A model generated the notes under the pieces. It searched no databases. It saw nothing but the letters and a program-made list of their open reading frames with translations, and was not told the origin of the DNA. A program made the translations under genes and the position numbers. 64,000 bases of DNA. Origin: an uncultured Verrucomicrobiota bacterium (GTDB lineage: Bacteria; Verrucomicrobiota; Verrucomicrobiia; JABWAM01). Within the stretch, counting starts at the first letter, position 1. Each line of letters opens with the position of its first letter. Shown here one piece after another: positions 5,373-40,186 of this stretch. The stretch lies in the NCBI GenBank assembly GCA_964475835.1, contig CAYYYL010000002.1:49910-113909 (forward strand), written 5' to 3'.

Positions 5373-6159
5373 ATGAGGCTGCTTTTTTCAAAGACCTTTT
5401 TCTTGGGATTCTTTTTTGCAAGGGGTTCATTCCTTCGGGTGAAACCTTTGGGTGCATTTACCCTGGTGGAGGTTCTCGTCGTGGTGGCGATTGTCATGGT
5501 GCTTACCAGTTTTCTGATGCCCGCTTTAAATCGGGCAAGGGAGAGCGGGCGTGGAGTGGTGTGTATGTCCAATTTGCGGCAACTGGGTCTTGCGTTTGAG
5601 CTTTATGGAGAAGAATACGGGCGATATCCCTATGGGCAGGAGATCAACATTTTCACTGGCTTAAAAAACGGCAAGGCGTCTGCCTGGCATGTACGGCTTG
5701 CGCCGTTCCTTGAAAAGGTAAACTATAATTATGCCGGTGGATTCACCGGTCAAACCTTTGTCATGAGCTGTCCCACCGCACTTGCAGCTGGAATAGGAGT
5801 TCCGGGTGCTTGGCAATACTCCTCCAATCCCCAACTTCTCAATACAGATGAGATATCAGAGTTTAATGAGAGCAGTTGCAATTGCACTTTTCCCCGAACC
5901 TTCCGTACCTTGAGCGAACGGGTGTTCAGGTGGATCGACGTATTGGGCGCACCAGTATAATGTGGATGATCCTGCGGATGGTGTAGCGGATCCAGGAGAT
6001 AACACCGACACTGTGGATAATTGGAAAAGGATTCGCTGGCGGCATGCGGGTGATCAACGGGCCAACATTCTGTTTTTGGACGGACATGTGGAGTCGATGA
6101 AAAAAGAGGGGCTTCGATACAAGCACTTCCAGCTATCCGAAGGCTGTATTCTGCCCTGA
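5373..6159 (+). pseudogene. Prepilin-type N-terminal cleavage/methylation-domain protein (DUF1559-like, H-X9-DG class), split across two reading frames by a frameshift at about 5914-5960
   Basis: Frame 0 (5373..5960) encodes the prepilin leader and hydrophobic helix GAFTLVEVLVVVAIVMVL plus the body. Frame +1 is open from 5914 and, through 5962..6159, encodes the family's C-terminal motif ...NILFLDGHVESM. A 1-nt indel would restore a single ~262-aa protein. Confidence 0.5.
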
Positions 6160-6192
6160 CACCCTGCTAGCAGCTTTTTGAGAGGAAGAAGA

Positions 6193-11085: not shown

Positions 11086-11693
11086 TTATTCTGGCTACGG
11101 GCAACGCCCACAAGGCTCGTGAATTTGCAGAAATGCTTGGTTCATGGGAGGTTCTTACGTTGAAGAACATTGGTTTCCAGGGGGATATTCTCGAGAATGG
11201 ACGAACGTTCGAAGAAAACGCCCAAATCAAAGCGGCATCCGTAATGGATTTTCTGAAGCAAAATCCGGTTTGTGGTGGGGGAGTCTCCGTGGTTTGTGCG
11301 GACGATTCGGGGCTTGAAGTGGATCATTTGGGGGGGGCACCCGGGGTTCTTTCCGCCCGATTCGCCGGGATCCCGTCCAATGACGCTGCCAACACGTCGA
11401 AACTTCTGGAAGCACTCGCGGGTGTTGCGGGTGTGAACCGGACGGCGCGATTTCGTTGTGTGATCGCAGCTGCAACGCTGGGGATGAATGCTCCCGAAAA
11501 AATATTTTCAGGGTCTTGCGAGGGAAAGATAGGATTCCAACCCAAGGGGACCCATGGATTTGGGTATGACCCTGTGTTTTTTCCAGAGGGATTTTGTCAT
11601 ACTTTTGCCGAAATCCAGTCGGACGAAAAAAACCGGATCAGTCATCGATCCAAGGCTGTGGCGGCGTTTAAAAAGTGGCTTCAAACCTTATGA
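11073..11693 (+). CDS. rdgB: Non-canonical purine NTP pyrophosphatase (dITP/XTP pyrophosphatase, RdgB/Ham1 family)
   Basis: The protein reads MRQLLILATGNAHKAREF..., with GFGYDPVF and the C-terminal HRSKA, all typical of RdgB. The ORF-track start at 10953 adds 40 residues of GC-rich repeat-element sequence. The ATG at 11073 is preferred. Confidence 0.85.
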   Translation: MRQLLILATGNAHKAREFAEMLGSWEVLTLKNIGFQGDILENGRTFEENAQIKAASVMDFLKQNPVCGGGVSVVCADDSGLEVDHLGGAPGVLSARFAGIPSNDAANTSKLLEALAGVAGVNRTARFRCVIAAATLGMNAPEKIFSGSCEGKIGFQPKGTHGFGYDPVFFPEGFCHTFAEIQSDEKNRISHRSKAVAAFKKWLQTL

Positions 11694-12232
11694 AATTCAC
11701 CCTCCTCCTTTCGATATGGTTGGGTTTGGCGTTAACGCTCCTGGCACGGGATTTTCCGAACAAGGGGAAGGAGGACATGTATCTCATGTACATGAAGTTC
11801 GCTTCTGACAGTAAAATTGAAGGAACGCGTCTCCGGGATCGGGCGAAACACGAGCCCGAGGATCTGGCAGCTCTGGATAAGGAAGGGGCCGAACTTTGTT
11901 TTAAAGATGCTGAGCTGGCGGAGAAGGCTGCTATGGCGGTGAGGAAGGCGAATTTTCGGGATAAAAAAGAAGCCGACCTGGCCCATGAGGAAATTCTTGA
12001 GAAGAAGAAGGCTCTTGCAAAGCGGATCGAGGAGTTGAAGCGATCGAAAGTCGCTAAAAAAGAACCTCCGAAGGTGGATCCTGTAAATTCCAAAATCGCT
12101 GCAACCCCAGAACCCCTTCGTGAAGGAGAGGTGGAGATGGGGGAATATGGGGAATATGCCCGGACGCCCGAGGAAGTGGATCGTTGGTTGAAGGAGGAGG
12201 ACATCAAACCGAAGCCTGTTTCAGACAGGTGA
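11690..12232 (+). CDS. Secreted K/E-rich coiled-coil protein of unknown function
   Basis: Signal peptide MKFTLLLSIWLGLALTLLA followed by a highly charged, helical low-complexity body. The start ATG overlaps the rdgB stop (ATGA), which suggests translational coupling. Confidence 0.5.
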   Translation: MKFTLLLSIWLGLALTLLARDFPNKGKEDMYLMYMKFASDSKIEGTRLRDRAKHEPEDLAALDKEGAELCFKDAELAEKAAMAVRKANFRDKKEADLAHEEILEKKKALAKRIEELKRSKVAKKEPPKVDPVNSKIAATPEPLREGEVEMGEYGEYARTPEEVDRWLKEEDIKPKPVSDR

Positions 12233-15520: not shown

Positions 15521-15617
15521 CAGGCTGCTGATTCTGCTTGCAAGGTTGTCAGGAACACAAAAGACTTGTTCTTTCAGCCACTGTTGATTATCCACAAAAT
15601 TCTCGAAATCTTCATCC

Positions 15618-16556
15618 ATGATCCAGGTTGAAAATCTTGTTAAACGATATGCGGGATTTCAGGCAATTCACGGCCTGACCTTTTCGGTTCAGCGTGGCGA
15701 GATCGTGGGCTTTTTGGGGCCGAATGGAGCGGGGAAAAGCACCACGATGCGGATTCTTTCCTGTTTTCTTCCGGCTACTTCAGGGCGCGCGAGTGTTGCG
15801 GGTTTTGACATTTATGAGCAATCCCTGGAGGTGAGGCGGCGCATCGGATACATGCCCGAAAATGTTCCTCTCTATCCGGAAATGCGGGTTTCGGAGTACT
15901 TGAATTTTCGCGCAGCCTTGAAAGGTGTTCCCGGCTCCCGGAGGAAGTCCCAGGTGGAACTGGTTAGCGAGAAGTGCGGCATCAAGGATGTGTCACGCAA
16001 GCTCATTGGGCATCTTTCCAAGGGCTATCGCCAGCGAGTCGGGCTTGCGGATACACTGGTCCATAATCCTGAGTTGATCATTCTCGATGAGCCCACGATC
16101 GGACTGGATCCCAATCAAATACGTCAGGTCCGTGAGCTGATCAAGGAGTTGGGAAAATCCCACACCGTCCTTCTCTCAACTCACATTCTCCCTGAAGTGG
16201 AAATGACATGCTCCCGCGTGGTGATCATCAACAAAGGGCGCATCGTCGCGAGTGATTCAACGGAAAAGATCAAGAAGCTGCGTCTTGGGGGCGGGGAAAC
16301 CGTGTTGGAGGTGAAGGTGGATGCGGCAGCCCTCGAGCAGTCGTTGAAGGATGTGGCAGGGCTCGATCATTTGAAGATCGCCTCGATGGAAGATGGCTAT
16401 GCGTCCGCAGTGCTCTATCCCAAGGGGGAAGAGGATCTCCGGGAGGTGGCTTATCAGCGCATCAAGGATCGCGGTTGGAATCTCCGGGATCTCACACGGC
16501 GAAGGCAGACTCTTGAAGATGTGTTTGTGCAATTGACCACCGAGGATGATGAGTAG
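15618..16556 (+). CDS. ABC transporter ATP-binding protein (ABC-2 / GldA-like)
   Basis: Walker A GPNGAGKST, the signature LSKGYRQRV, and Walker B ILDEPT. Confidence 0.9.
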   Translation: MIQVENLVKRYAGFQAIHGLTFSVQRGEIVGFLGPNGAGKSTTMRILSCFLPATSGRASVAGFDIYEQSLEVRRRIGYMPENVPLYPEMRVSEYLNFRAALKGVPGSRRKSQVELVSEKCGIKDVSRKLIGHLSKGYRQRVGLADTLVHNPELIILDEPTIGLDPNQIRQVRELIKELGKSHTVLLSTHILPEVEMTCSRVVIINKGRIVASDSTEKIKKLRLGGGETVLEVKVDAAALEQSLKDVAGLDHLKIASMEDGYASAVLYPKGEEDLREVAYQRIKDRGWNLRDLTRRRQTLEDVFVQLTTEDDE

Positions 16557-35718: not shown

Positions 35719-36564
35719 ATGGTCCGCTCCTCGATTTTCTATGAAATGCACATGCATACGCCTCTTTGCAGGCACGCCACCGGGGAGCCTGAGGAGTATG
35801 CAGAGGTGGCCTTTTCGCGAAATCTAAAGGGGATGGTGGTGACGTGCCACAATCCTTTGCCTGGGGGTTGGGGGGCTGCCAGTCGAATGAGGCTCGAGGA
35901 ATTTTCCATCTATCAGGAAATGGTGTTGCGCACCCGCAAAACATGGGAAGGACGGGTTGATGTCCGACTGGGCCTGGAATGTGATTACGCGCCGGAGCTC
36001 GAACCCTGGCTCCGAAAACAACTTGATGGTGTAAGCTTCCACCATGTGCTTGGGTCAGTCCATCCCCAGATTCCTGATTACATGGACGCGTACTTTCGGG
36101 GCGACTGGTTTGCGTATCAGAAGACCTATTTTGATCACCTCGCAAGATCTGCGGAGTGCGGGTTGTTTGATACGCTTGCGCATCCCGATTTGATCAAAAA
36201 TTTATCACCTGAGGAATGGCGCTTGGATCGCATTGCTCCATTCATTCTGGAGGCGCTGGATCGCATCGCCCCGACGGGGGTGGGAATGGAATTGAACACG
36301 TCGGGGCTGAACAAGGCGATTCGAGAGATGAATCCCTGTCCCTGGATGCTTCGTGAAATGCGGGCCCGTTCCATACCGGTTACGATTGGAGCGGATGCTC
36401 ATCATCCGGGGAGGGTGGGGAGCCATTTTGAGGAGGCTCTTTCCATGCTGGAACAGGCAGGTTACGAGAGAGTGGGAATCGTTCTGGATCGCCAGCGAAT
36501 CGAGTTTCCCCTGGAAAAGGTCCGGCGTAGCCTTCAACCGATCAGTGCGTCAACTGTTTCGTGA
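35719..36564 (+). CDS. PHP-domain phosphoesterase of the HisJ/HisK histidinol-phosphatase family
   Basis: The N-terminal [19 protein letters not shown] matches the HisK H-x-H-T..C.HA.G..EEY motif. It lies 8 bp downstream of the kinase. Confidence 0.65.
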
Positions 36565-37900
36565 GTTGGTTGATCGCCTGCTTCAGGCCGCTGTCAGTTT
36601 TGAGACGTTCGTCCACCAGCCTGCATGCGTGGATGACGGTGCCATGGTCCCGTCCGCCGAACACCTCGCCAATTTCGTTCAGTGAGGAACGCGTCATGAT
36701 GCGGCAGAGATACATCGCCACCTGGCGGGGGAACGCGATGTTTGCACTCCGACGCTTGCTAGTCATATCCGCGAGACGAATGTCAAAATATGCTGCAACG
36801 CGTTTCTGAATGGTTTCCGCAGTCAATGCCTGCTTGCTCTCCTCAATCAAAATATCCTGAAGCTCGTCCTCCACTTCAGCGACTGTCAGCGGGCGGGCTT
36901 TGAGTTTCGTGGAAAACCAGACCTTGGCCCAGGCACCCTCGAGACGACGCACATTCGTTTTGATGTGATGAGCGAGAAATTGAAGGATTTCGTCAGGAAT
37001 GGGGACCTGGCTGTGTTCCTGTTTCCTCCGAAGAATGGCGAGGCGGGTTTCCTCATCAGGAAGTTGAAGTTGAACCGTAAGACCCCACTCAAAGCGTGAC
37101 ACAAGGCGTTGTTCGAGGTTTGAAATTTCAGTTGCAGGCCGATCACTTGAAAGCACGATCTGTTTCTGGGCTTCGAAAAGAGTGTTGAAGGTGTGGAAGA
37201 ACTCCTCCTGCATCTGATCCCCACGACCTAAAAAGTGAATATCATCCACCAATAGAATATCGCAATTCCGGTATTTTTTCCGAAATGGAACAAACCGTTT
37301 GTTCTGAATTGCATCCACAAATTCATTTACGAAACGTTCCGTGGAAACATAAGCGATCTGACACGATTTATTCTGGCTTACCAGATGGTGTCCGATGGCA
37401 TGCATGAGGTGGGTTTTCCCCAGTCCCGTGGCTCCGTAGATGAAGAGGGGATTGTAAGCCCGGCCAGGAGACTGGGCCACAGCGGAACATCCGGCATGGG
37501 CATACTGATTGCTCGGACCCACGACAAAGTTGTTGAAGGTGAAGGCTGGGTTGAGAATGTTGCGCTCAACGGACGGCTTCATGCGGGCCGGAGCCGGGGT
37601 GGGCGTCCAACTTTCCGCAGGTGGTGTTTTGGCGCTAACAACCTCGGTATCCTCATTGCGGATGAAGCGAAAGGTCATTGCTTTTCCGGAAATGGCGCTC
37701 AGCGTGTCCCTTAGAAGATCGCCGTAATTGTCCTCCAACCAGTAGCGATAGAGATTGGAAGACGCCTGGAGGCAAATGCAGTCGTTTTCGATGTGAGAAG
37801 CTCGGATGGGGTCAAACCAGCGTTTAAAAACTTGCGGGGCAACAACTTCGTTGAGCCGTGTGGCGGTGCGTTTCCAAAGATCCTGCGGGGAAGATTCCAT
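36542..37900 (-). CDS. dnaA: Chromosomal replication initiator protein DnaA
   Basis: 452 aa. Walker [11 protein letters not shown], Walker [10 protein letters not shown], sensor motifs, and the domain IV DNA-binding helix-turn-helix ([10 protein letters not shown]). Confidence 0.95.
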
Positions 37901-38668
37901 GGTCGATTCGCTAGTTATTCACAACAGGATGAGATTTCCCGAGTTGGTTGATGGGGGTGAAACAAAAAGGGCAGAAGGGTGGTACAGGGATGGAGATGAT
38001 GTCGATTGAGGCAAAAAAGGGATGGTGTTGCTGGCAAAAAGGTCGATATTTCCCTTAACAAAATGAGACCATTCCGGAAATTAGGCTTCCGAAGGGAAGC
38101 ATTTCCCAAAGAATAAGCTGAAAAGGGGAAGGATGGGAGTGAGTACCAACGGAAGATGCAGACTTTGACATCCGGCTGGGTTGGGGAGTTTTCAACAAGT
38201 TATTCACAGGGTTGGTTTGAACTCACTTTTTCCGCTTCGCGGCCATTTTAGTTCCAACTTTAGTTCCAACTTTTTTCAGCACAAGATTTTTTTGATCTCG
38301 AAGAAAATTTATTTCGTAAACTTGCAGTATGATTTCTTGCGGGCTCAACGGGAATAGAGAAGGCGTAAAAAAAAACCAAGCAAAATTGATTCAATTTGGA
38401 GATTTTCTATGTTGACGAAAAAAAATTAAATTGTGGGAAAGGATGGGCTGTTTTTTTCTAGGGGATGAAGAAGTTTAAAAGATTTTATATTTATGATTTA
38501 ACCGGTTCCGTGTGGGAGTCTTGATTTTGGGTTCCCTTCGGCCGGAATTAAAGATGAACGGAAGGGCAAAACGAAAGTGGCAAGGCAGTCAAGAAATGAA
38601 CATTGTCTTGGCGGTTGGGGAGGGGGTATATTGAAACTGGATTTCATTTTTTGAAGTGGTGTTATTTT
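37901..38668. other. Candidate chromosomal replication origin (oriC) or dnaA regulatory region
   Basis: This is the longest non-coding stretch in the window (~770 bp) and lies immediately upstream of dnaA. It is AT-rich, especially at 38290-38500. Two identical 11-mers AGTTATTCACA at 37913-37923 and 38198-38208 each contain TTATTCACA, which matches the E. coli DnaA box (TTATCCACA) at 8 of 9 positions. There is also a 12-bp tandem repeat and several A and T tracts. Confidence 0.45.
38248..38271. repeat. Perfect 2 x 12-bp tandem repeat (TTAGTTCCAACT) inside the candidate origin
   Basis: Read directly from the sequence. Confidence 0.9.
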
Positions 38669-39235
38669 ATGCAACCCAAGAAAATTCTTGTGCTAACGAT
38701 TTGCTTCATTGTGATGGGTATTGCTTTGGGGTCTGTCGTCTACCGTCTTTTCCCTAAAAAAATTTCCAACCGCCACGTGAGTGAAGCCATGGGGAAAATA
38801 TTTGCGGTTGAGGTCTCGAAATATTTGGGTGATGGGAGTGTCTGCGTGGTGATTCTTGAGCGTCCTGGAAAGTCTCAAAATGATACGTTTCTGGAAGCGT
38901 TGAATGGGACTTCGATTCGTCTTGAGGGTGTTGAGAAAATTGTTCCCGATGAAATGGGATTATACGGACGTGGGCCGTTTTCAAAGGAAATGTTTCTTCA
39001 GTTTTTGAGCGCCCACCCCAATGTTTCAGCCATTGTTTCCTTAATCGGCCCTCCCAACGACCTTGAACAGATTTCGCCCCAACCCAATCGACCCAAGTTG
39101 ATGGTTTTCAGTAATCGCACGGCACAACTTGAAGACCTTATTCGTGCGAACTTGGTTCAGATGGCCATGGTGCCCAAAAACAACGGGGGAACTGAATACG
39201 AAGTCCTTACCGAAAGCTCCCTTCGGGACAAGTGA
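38669..39235 (+). CDS. Hypothetical membrane-anchored protein (N-terminal TM/signal anchor, 188 aa)
   Basis: MQPKKILVLTICFIVMGIALG signal-anchor. The ORF-track start at 38603 would place coding sequence inside the AT-rich origin-like region, so the ATG at 38669 is preferred. Confidence 0.4.
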   Translation: MQPKKILVLTICFIVMGIALGSVVYRLFPKKISNRHVSEAMGKIFAVEVSKYLGDGSVCVVILERPGKSQNDTFLEALNGTSIRLEGVEKIVPDEMGLYGRGPFSKEMFLQFLSAHPNVSAIVSLIGPPNDLEQISPQPNRPKLMVFSNRTAQLEDLIRANLVQMAMVPKNNGGTEYEVLTESSLRDK

Positions 39236-39259
39236 GGCGAGGAGGCTTTGCGGTTTTCC

Positions 39260-40186
39260 CTAGGGCATGTGGGGATTTTTGTTTGGCGGAGGCAGGTAGT
39301 CACTATTGGGCCACCCGCCAAACCAACCATCGTCAATTTTATCGATATCCTGGACTGGATTAAGGGATTGGACGTGGCCGTCACAGTAGACGTAGTTATC
39401 GACTCCTGGCCTTGCCACCACAGGGCGCCACTGGCCCCCTGGGCTTAGCTTTGTGGTATCGTCCCAAAGGGTGTCCACTCCGCCATGAAAACCGGCAGGG
39501 CCTGTCATTTCATAGCCCCAAGCATCAAATGGAAGGGTCCTTAAACTAAAAACATTCGGAAAGGTTCCCAAGGGGTGCCATGTCCCACCGAACGCATTAC
39601 ACGTAAAAGCAATCCGACGGCCGGGATCAGGAACCAGAGTGCCAGCTGGCTGGTGAACCTCGGGGTGGGCCATAGGATTCGGCCAGGTCGGGAAATCCGG
39701 ATAGTTTGGAAAAGGAAGAATTAGGGTGTTGTTATATGCATATCCCTGAAGGTCGTTTTTTACCCCCTTGTAGAGCTCGACGACAATGGGACAAACAAGA
39801 TTGTAAGGGATTCGATGTTCAAATCCGCCAGGAACAGACCAATTAGCAACCTGACATCCCAAATAGGGAGCCAATCTTGTGTTGATATCCTGGTATGAGA
39901 TGGGGGTAGGCCCGTGTGGCCATTGTTGAGGATCCGCCCAGTTGCTATCACGATCCAAAGGGTAGCAATCATGATTTGCCACCCGGTACATATTTAGGGC
40001 AGCCCCCCAATTTTTAAGATTGCTGACACAAGTTATCCGCTTCGATAGAGTTTTGATTCGGCTGAGCGCTGGAAACAGGAGTGAGACAAGGACGCTAATG
40101 ATGGTTAAAACAACCAGGAGTTCCATGAGCGTGAAGCCCCTTGAACCGAACTTTTCAGACTTTTTTGTCAACGAGATGGGTTGCAT
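39260..40186 (-). CDS. Prepilin-type N-terminal cleavage/methylation-domain protein (DUF1559-like)
   Basis: GFTLMELLVVLTIISVL leader and helix, with the C-terminal NYVYCDGHVQS motif. Confidence 0.75.
   Translation of the reverse strand: MQPISLTKKSEKFGSRGFTLMELLVVLTIISVLVSLLFPALSRIKTLSKRITCVSNLKNWGAALNMYRVANHDCYPLDRDSNWADPQQWPHGPTPISYQDINTRLAPYLGCQVANWSVPGGFEHRIPYNLVCPIVVELYKGVKNDLQGYAYNNTLILPFPNYPDFPTWPNPMAHPEVHQPAGTLVPDPGRRIAFTCNAFGGTWHPLGTFPNVFSLRTLPFDAWGYEMTGPAGFHGGVDTLWDDTTKLSPGGQWRPVVARPGVDNYVYCDGHVQSLNPVQDIDKIDDGWFGGWPNSDYLPPPNKNPHMP

Follow-up and report, generated by a model that had tools for sequence, protein, structure and literature searches.

Does the long non-coding gap upstream of dnaA in this uncultured member of the Verrucomicrobiota open the chromosome for replication, or does it serve the expression of dnaA itself? 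The window, i.e., the whole 64-kb stretch of DNA that was analyzed, contains a minus-strand gene (36542–37900, 452 amino acids) that is dnaA beyond doubt. Its product scores 522.6 bits against TIGR00362, with a cut-off of 343.9, and matches each of the three Pfam domains DnaA_N, Bac_DnaA, and Bac_DnaA_C. Domain IV aligns with those of E. coli (1J1V) and B. subtilis (8BTG) and largely keeps the signature (KRR, RDH, and HA), with the substitutions P423N and T435G (E. coli numbering). The non-coding gap (37901–38668, 768 bp) separates dnaA from a divergent plus-strand ORF beginning at 38669 and is the longest among the gaps between the listed ORFs of at least 150 amino acids. The GC content of the gap is 0.41 overall and 0.31 in 38272–38500, and the lowest-GC 200 bp of the window are located inside it (38301–38500, GC 0.30; next lowest 0.40), in agreement with the initial annotation, which described an AT-rich non-coding region of ~770 bp on the 5' side of dnaA. 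The remark that dnaN is not adjacent to dnaA also holds, as tblastn with the DnaN of a relative detected no dnaN in the whole 64 kb (best E = 2.4).

The same annotation proposed the gap as oriC. In such a case, DnaA would open the AT-rich DNA at 38250–38500 and load the helicase, and the dnaA promoter would be embedded in the origin. The position next to dnaA, the lowest-GC stretch of the window, and the orientation of the conserved boxes, which read away from the A/T tract as in unwinding modules, point in this direction. In some bacteria, among them Pseudomonas and Campylobacter, a box cluster upstream of dnaA is itself the origin or forms part of it. In H. pylori oriC1, the box cluster upstream of dnaA is likewise part of the origin (PMC3479198). 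Meanwhile, the literature search yielded no experimentally defined Verrucomicrobiota origin that would contradict the proposal. Nevertheless, the gap shows no skew switch, few boxes, no DnaA-trio array, and a lineage-specific AT-rich stretch, and a functional oriC at this place is considered quite unlikely.

Strand composition and other origin signatures

The plus-strand GC skew amounts to +0.109 on the left of the gap and +0.078 on the right in the 64-kb window. None of the 60 sliding 5-kb windows has a negative value, and the cumulative GC skew climbs monotonically except in four single 1-kb bins. The plus-strand skew is positive for the genes on either strand (+0.103 and +0.090). At the third codon positions, the skew is +0.161 for the plus-strand genes and +0.232 for the minus-strand genes on the left, and +0.171 and +0.177, respectively, on the right (SE 0.016–0.026). 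Within 37.9 kb on the left and 25.3 kb on the right, no change of sign exists in the bulk sequence, at the third codon positions, or in either gene orientation, and this stands against an origin in the gap. When skew does not depend on gene orientation across tens of kilobases, it marks replication-strand bias; hence, the uniform skew implies that a single fork direction crosses the whole window, which leaves no point of fork divergence in it, and an origin at 38.3 kb would need the opposite sign on the left. The gene-strand bias also runs in the same direction on both sides, with the plus-strand genes forming the majority on the left (18 of 30) and on the right (14 of 20), which again argues against the gap as an origin. 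The initial annotation suggested a skew check across the full replicon; within the 64 kb, the skew has no switch at the gap or anywhere else, and, judging from the strand composition, the replication origin is located outside of this stretch.

The other signatures expected of an origin point the same way. Clustering of GATC of the E. coli type was considered and rejected, as GATC is depleted in the gap (1 versus 5.4 expected), and the accompanying search for parS found none. A scan of 30 proteins of the window detected none of the usual origin-proximal genes. The two perfect TTATCCACA sites (6012 and 15588) were inspected as other origin candidates in the window and discarded as isolated single boxes, one being situated in an apparent coding sequence and the other 22 nt before the start of an ABC transporter. 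Furthermore, the orphan-dnaA loci of the relatives show no skew switch at dnaA in any case, which also weighs against the origin reading.

DnaA boxes and the conserved layout upstream of dnaA

The 768-bp gap contains two exact copies of TTATTCACA and one copy with 2 mismatches, and so small a number of boxes (two good and one degenerate) also tends to disfavor an origin. In the sense orientation of dnaA (minus strand), the start-proximal box is an exact TGTGAATAA (37915–37923), which ends 14 nt before the ATG. The distal strong box (38200–38208) is also an exact TGTGAATAA on the minus strand and forms the first half of a tandem pair, the second half being the degenerate minus-strand box TGTTGAAAA (38189–38197) at a distance of 11 bp start-to-start. 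The 11-mer AGTTATTCACA occurs at 37913–37923 and 38198–38208, exactly where the repeat was claimed to be. All boxes and the promoter-like hexamers are located on the dnaA sense strand, 14–384 nt upstream of the ATG; the tandem pair begins 38–50 nt past the −10 hexamer, and the further box stands immediately before the start codon at the 14-nt distance given above.

Such repeats might be chance matches in an AT-rich spacer with no DnaA-related function. Judged from the 64 kb by themselves, the repeat of the 11-mer is indeed not significant, since 13 of 100 shuffles had at least two matches at no more than one mismatch, and therefore its weight derives from conservation in the relatives. The 9-mer TTATTCACA satisfies the relaxed box pattern TTATNCACA in full, and four matches to TTATNCACA were found in 64 kb versus 1.05 expected, a number reached in 1 of 100 shuffles. 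Both copies of TTATTCACA in 64 kb fall within the gap, i.e., within 1.2% of the sequence, and at two homologous positions the 9-mer does not vary among the window and the seven related loci, in gaps whose remaining sequence cannot be aligned. This conservation effectively refutes the chance reading, which is hardly credible. The likeness to a DnaA box noted in the initial annotation is borne out by the fit to TTATNCACA and by the two invariant positions, and the 11-mer repeat very probably represents a true DnaA box.

The comparison set consists of the dnaA loci of the window and of seven relatives (L001, L002, L033, L034, L036, L037, and L039), whose DnaA proteins are 62–88% identical to that of the window (L033, 88%; L001 and L002, 74–75%; L039, 62%); L001 and L002 were the best matches in a scan of one genome per species, and a protein search added closer relatives. 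In the alignment of these eight sequences (A3), a common layout is present in the orientation of dnaA whatever the neighboring genes, and the rest of the gap cannot be aligned. It runs from an A/T tract through promoter-like hexamers, a GC-rich block, the tandem pair, and a leader to the proximal TGTGAATAA. The A/T tract occupies a homologous place in all eight (40–60 nt, 72–85% A+T). Following it, the promoter columns CTTG, 16 nt, and T-A-n-A-n-T are invariant in the eight genomes, with ungapped spacing. After the −10 hexamer comes, in each of the eight, a CGCG-rich block of 11–15 nt, and ~25 purine-rich nucleotides connect this block to the tandem pair.

The tandem pair has the form TGTGAATAAC-yTGTnnAnAA, in which TGTGAATAAC, followed one base on by TGT, is invariant in 8/8 sequences of A3. 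In each of the eight, its boxes are placed 11 bp apart start-to-start and 258–330 nt ahead of the start codon. The second box of the pair is TGTGAAAAA, TGTGGATAA, TGTGAAGAA, or TGTGAATAA in the relatives and carries 2–3 mismatches in the window and L033. The leader after the pair is ~300 nt long, C-rich, and unconserved. At its end, the proximal TGTGAATAA starts 13–28 nt before the start codon, in the same orientation, in 7/8 genomes (the window and six relatives); in L002 this distance is uncertain, as the start codon is unclear, with the listed ORF starting within the box. The two box sites are separated by 301–306 bp in six of the eight genomes, by 285 bp in the window, and by 245 bp in L037. 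It may be speculated that so nearly constant a spacing, despite the unconserved intervening sequence, hints at cooperative binding or looping.

The neighbors of dnaA differ among these genomes: GT9 and dnaN in L001 and L034, a 670-aa protein and a PHP gene in the window and L033, HAD in L036 and L037, YicC/ASL in L039, and others in L002. Because of these differences, the upstream module belongs to dnaA and not to a chromosomal site. Simultaneously, L033, an independent assembly with 12% DnaA divergence, is syntenic with the window on both sides of dnaA, which shows the dnaA junction to be neither a misassembly nor recent.

A putative autoregulated dnaA promoter

The gap probably serves as the dnaA promoter together with a long 5' leader, under negative autoregulation by DnaA, rather than as a site at which the chromosome is opened. 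Transcription would begin several bases past a minus-strand promoter of the sigma-70 type (approximately 38284–38257), apparently preceded by the A/T tract and followed by the GC-rich, discriminator-like block. DnaA is predicted to bind the tandem pair (38208–38189), ~50 nt downstream of the −10 hexamer, as well as the single box (37923–37915) at the start codon. Bound DnaA would hinder RNA polymerase, possibly via DnaA–DnaA contacts joining both sites, so that the expression of dnaA would drop as free DnaA rises. The true origin would then lie beyond the 64 kb, most likely next to the unlinked dnaN. In E. coli, B. subtilis, Vibrio harveyi, Streptomyces, and mycobacteria, DnaA boxes are established mediators of dnaA autoregulation (reviewed in PMC8203912). 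By analogy, boxes that are co-oriented with the gene and placed past its putative promoter and beside its start codon fit repression.

The putative dnaA promoter (38257–38284, minus strand) consists of the −35 hexamer TTGTGC (38284–38279), a 16-nt spacer, and the −10 hexamer TAAAGT (38262–38257). The two hexamers match the E. coli consensus at 7 of 12 positions and are not called by a simple consensus scan, which does call the aligned promoter of L033 (TTGAGC-16-TAGAAT). As the hexamers of the window are weak and uncalled, we infer the dnaA promoter from its conservation. Directly upstream of the −35 hexamer, an A/T-tract region resembles an UP element (38285–38330, minus strand). Directly after the −10 region, the GC-rich block GGCCGCGAAGCGG (38232–38244, minus strand) resembles a discriminator; a role of this block as a stabilizing 5' hairpin was rejected, since it is no stabler than shuffles in the eight genomes (z from −2.0 to +0.7). 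A perfect 12-bp tandem duplication (38247–38271, unstranded) spans the −10 region. This repeat, also claimed in the initial annotation, is present in the window at 38248–38271 as described, and it corresponds to an insertion of 11–12 nt relative to all seven relatives; therefore, it is lineage-specific and not a conserved element.

Other parts of the gap are conserved narrowly or not at all. The minus-strand block TTGCTTGGT9ACGCCTTCTCTATT (38353–38387) is shared only with the closest relative, L033, being identical at 28/31 positions in the homologous place, and is missing in the other six. The recurrence of AAGGATGGG proposed earlier is real, with copies at 38129–38137 and 38439–38447, but the positions given for it (38120 and 38436) were off by 9 and 3 nt. 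Within the window the repeat extends to a 13-mer with one mismatch; it is not seen at the homologous positions of the relatives and is thus taken as chance. A structured RNA or riboswitch in the leader was considered and rejected, as no Rfam family reached the gathering score and the fold does not differ from shuffles (z = −0.04); at E ≤1, the gap has no Rfam match besides a spurious HIV frameshift hit. A conserved upstream peptide was rejected as well, since the matches among the relatives compared are all short and fall on the conserved DNA blocks, and no ORF in the gap is conserved among them.

The basal unwinding rule (PMC8287927) comprises a box with no more than 2 mismatches, a spacer of 0–16 bp, and at least three NAN trios, which were counted on the strand complementary to TTATCCACA, the orientation being set from the B. 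subtilis scaffold oligos. Under the published rules, a DnaA-trio array is absent within 16 bp of either box of the gap. A basal unwinding system at the tandem pair was rejected, since the pattern is lacking in the window, and the pass of L033 under a permissive rule is unconserved. As in the known basal system (PMC6669920, PMC8287927), the pair has two boxes in the same orientation that read away from A/T-rich DNA. Compared with that system, the window has no run of at least three trios within 16 bp, of its two boxes the one closer to the A/T tract, not the distal one, is the stronger, and ~75 nt of promoter and GC-rich sequence intervene.

The same arrangement tells against the gap as an origin. 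More than 60 nt, with the promoter hexamers and the GC-rich block, separate the nearest box from the beginning of the AT-rich DNA, and this box is ~75 nt from the A/T tract versus at most 16 nt in unwinding modules; the intervening promoter elements and the missing trio array add to the difficulty. Furthermore, the AT-rich extension beyond the A/T tract, to ~38500, is specific to the window. The unwinding element proposed at 38290–38500 thus finds no backing, since its AT-rich tract is unconserved in the relatives, even in L033 with its 88% identity.

The dnaN loci of relatives and comparison with known systems

In L001 and L034, dnaA is followed by dnaN, with more boxes and an AT-rich segment in the 250-bp gap between the two genes. 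Where dnaN was retrieved from the closest relatives, it is unlinked from dnaA. The loci L041 and L042/L043, retrieved with DnaN as the probe, have the order GT9, a ~700-bp gap, and dnaN, with no dnaA. The GT9–dnaN gap of L042/L043 contains 7 boxes at no more than one mismatch in ~700 bp, and that of L041 contains 5 boxes, in addition to which the tandem pair overlaps GT9 at its 3' end; the tandem-pair motif known from upstream of dnaA is also present at the far end of the GT9–dnaN gap. Approximately 100 nt before dnaN, a conserved module GCTATTTACwTTATTCACA-N8-9-ATGATGATG-AT-rich is located, in which the box is TTATTCACA. This module is homologous to the dnaA–dnaN gap of L034 (86% over 37 nt) and passes the basal unwinding rule; the rule-compliant unwinding module of the clade stands before dnaN. 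Box clusters beside dnaN, which the initial annotation named as counting against its proposal, were found in the closest relatives with a dnaN locus retrieved and are better than that of the gap. To judge from these sequences, the region upstream of dnaN is a better candidate origin than the gap in this clade. The DnaN proteins of L041, L042, and L043 are 90–91% identical to P0133 (an NCBI-only protein), which is plausibly the DnaN of the window's own genome, encoded on a contig other than that of dnaA.

The skew of the relatives with respect to the dnaN-side location is suggestive for L034, L001, and L042 and negative for L041; the change in L042 is only flat-to-positive, and L041 has no sign change. 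It is small in amplitude and confounded by the C-bias of the coding strand at third positions; being weak and confounded, it is not relied on as an origin locator.

This lineage appears to have split an ancestral two-part origin of the form GT9-[boxes]-dnaA-[boxes + unwinding module]-dnaN. In this scenario, dnaA would have moved off with a copy of the upstream half (promoter, tandem pair, and proximal box), and the old site would have collapsed to the ~700-bp box-rich region before dnaN, with the tandem pair kept. The gap might then be the detached, dnaA-linked half of the ancestral origin and act mainly as a DnaA reservoir or regulatory site, titrating or modulating DnaA besides or instead of controlling dnaA transcription. 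The order GT9-[boxes]-dnaA-[boxes + AT-rich]-dnaN in L001 and L034 is consistent with this possibility, as is the retention of the tandem pair upstream of dnaN in L041 and L042 even though dnaA is gone, which implies that the pair has a role for which no dnaA promoter is needed. A cluster upstream of dnaA that binds DnaA without unwinding also occurs in H. pylori (PMC3479198). However, the box count that can be set beside DnaA-titrating or DnaA-modulating loci of the datA/DARS type is three, a small reservoir, and the boxes are co-conserved with the promoter elements and the position of the start codon, for which transcriptional control is the simplest explanation. Moreover, we know of no precedent for action between origin halves across tens of kilobases or more. 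Such a function of the gap is considered unlikely. It is very unlikely that the dnaA-linked copy still takes part in the control of initiation, either as a weak or conditional second origin or by acting from afar on the dnaN-linked origin as its partner or titrator.

The preferred reading, an autoregulated dnaA promoter, agrees with known systems in several respects, but there are also differences. In the case of E. coli, the dnaA promoter region (dnaAp1 and dnaAp2, with a DnaA box between them) is located together with dnaA apart from oriC (PMC8287927), as is proposed for the window. DnaA boxes in this region mediate autorepression (PMC8203912); boxes are likewise present there in the window, and a box is located downstream of the putative promoter. 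Compared with E. coli, the window has a single apparent conserved promoter, a tandem pair with the second site ~285–306 bp away, TTATTCACA as the preferred box, and no GATC/SeqA layer, GATC being depleted.

In the case of B. subtilis, the two-part oriC has its counterpart in the order upstream boxes, dnaA, boxes plus AT-rich DNA, and dnaN of L001 and L034, whereas in the lineage of the window the dnaN-side half with the unwinding module is not beside dnaA. The boxes of incA and incB flank the dnaA promoter (PdnaA) of B. subtilis, and the dnaA–dnaN operon is reportedly autoregulated by DnaA (Ogura et al. 2001, cited in PMC8203912). The number of boxes in the gap is much below that of incAB. In the case of H. 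pylori oriC1, the cluster upstream of dnaA binds DnaA and unwinding takes place in a second sub-region, which gives a precedent for separating DnaA binding from the unwinding site (PMC3479198). The two parts of the H. pylori origin flank dnaA and cooperate, whereas the window contains no second part within 36.5 kb downstream of dnaA.

Overall, the element in the gap is judged to be an ordinary regulatory region of a well-known kind. A literature search on Verrucomicrobiota origins found no study of one, and for this reason the clade-specific details are new. For annotation, proximity to dnaA together with a couple of boxes and AT-rich DNA is insufficient to call an origin, and a self-regulated dnaA promoter fits the same evidence better. 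For this uncultured clade of Verrucomicrobiota, the preferred box TTATTCACA and the fixed layout of promoter, box pair, leader, and box provide a testable model of dnaA control. If the dnaA-linked copy still acts in initiation, the clade would serve as a natural experiment on whether a bipartite origin needs its two halves linked.

Spacing and shared sequence upstream of dnaA

In six of the eight genomes, namely L033 (the closest relative), L001, L034, L002, L036 and L039, the tandem DnaA boxes of the distal pair are separated from the start-proximal box by 301–306 bp; the corresponding distance is 285 bp in the window (37915–38208) and 245 bp in L037. Despite its similar length, the interval between the two sites is not conserved in sequence. 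A constraint on the length of this interval is possible, which raises the question of DNA looping. In addition, a 31-nt block, TTGCTTGGTTTTTTTTTACGCCTTCTCTATT, is located at 38353–38387, approximately 100 nt upstream of the putative -35 element, and matches L033 at 28 of 31 positions in the homologous place, and is absent from relatives more distant than L033.

Genes around dnaA and strand skew

Two genes within 38669–40186, a 188-aa ORF without a family match and a gene for a 308-aa prepilin-type N-methyl-domain protein, are situated between the non-coding region upstream of dnaA and a 670-aa gene. Because both are missing from L033, they look like a lineage-specific insertion adjoining the non-coding region. 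On the other side, the 3′ end of dnaA overlaps a convergent gene of the PHP/histidinol-phosphatase family (35719–36564) by 23 bp (36542–36564), thereby leaving no space for an origin element downstream of dnaA, and the same arrangement of the two genes exists in L033. In L002, the gene downstream of dnaA has REP-like palindromes repeated on both sides of it (11350–11440 and 12040–12115), as GTAGGAGCCGCTGTCAGCGGCG and as the complementary sequence.

The amplitude of the skew differs between the window and its close relatives. The window has a strong, orientation-independent skew of about 0.17–0.23 at third positions, whereas the whole loci of L033, L041, L042 and L034 display only a weak replication-type skew, and in addition their third codon positions carry an excess of C on the coding strand.

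Isolated boxes elsewhere in the window

Two perfect TTATCCACA boxes, each isolated, are located at 15588–15596 and 6012–6020. The former, 22 nt ahead of an ABC-transporter ATPase gene starting at 15618, conforms to the permissive box-spacer-trio rule, by criteria that are at chance level. The latter sits in sequence resembling the C-terminal portion of a DUF1559-type protein. The DUF1559 (SBP_bac_10) ORF of 195 aa ends at 5960, and the C-terminal motif usual for the family (..LFLDGHVESM..) seems, when read by eye, to be encoded in the following 230 bp; this gene (5373–6190) could be frameshifted or interrupted.

Tandem-pair motif and DnaA domain IV

The tandem-pair motif TGTGAATAAsTTGTGrAnAA, typical of the module upstream of dnaA, also exists in L041 (9300–9320) and L042 (9293–9312), at or just past the 3′ end of GT9, on the dnaN-distal side of the region upstream of that gene. 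In both of these genomes dnaA has left the GT9–dnaN locus. In the window DnaA, alignment of domain IV (36545–36904, minus strand) to that of E. coli DnaA (1J1V) shows a base-contacting segment that reads SLNEIG..., with the substitutions P423N and T435G (numbered as in E. coli). These two substitutions may be linked to the preference of the clade for TTATTCACA over TTATCCACA.
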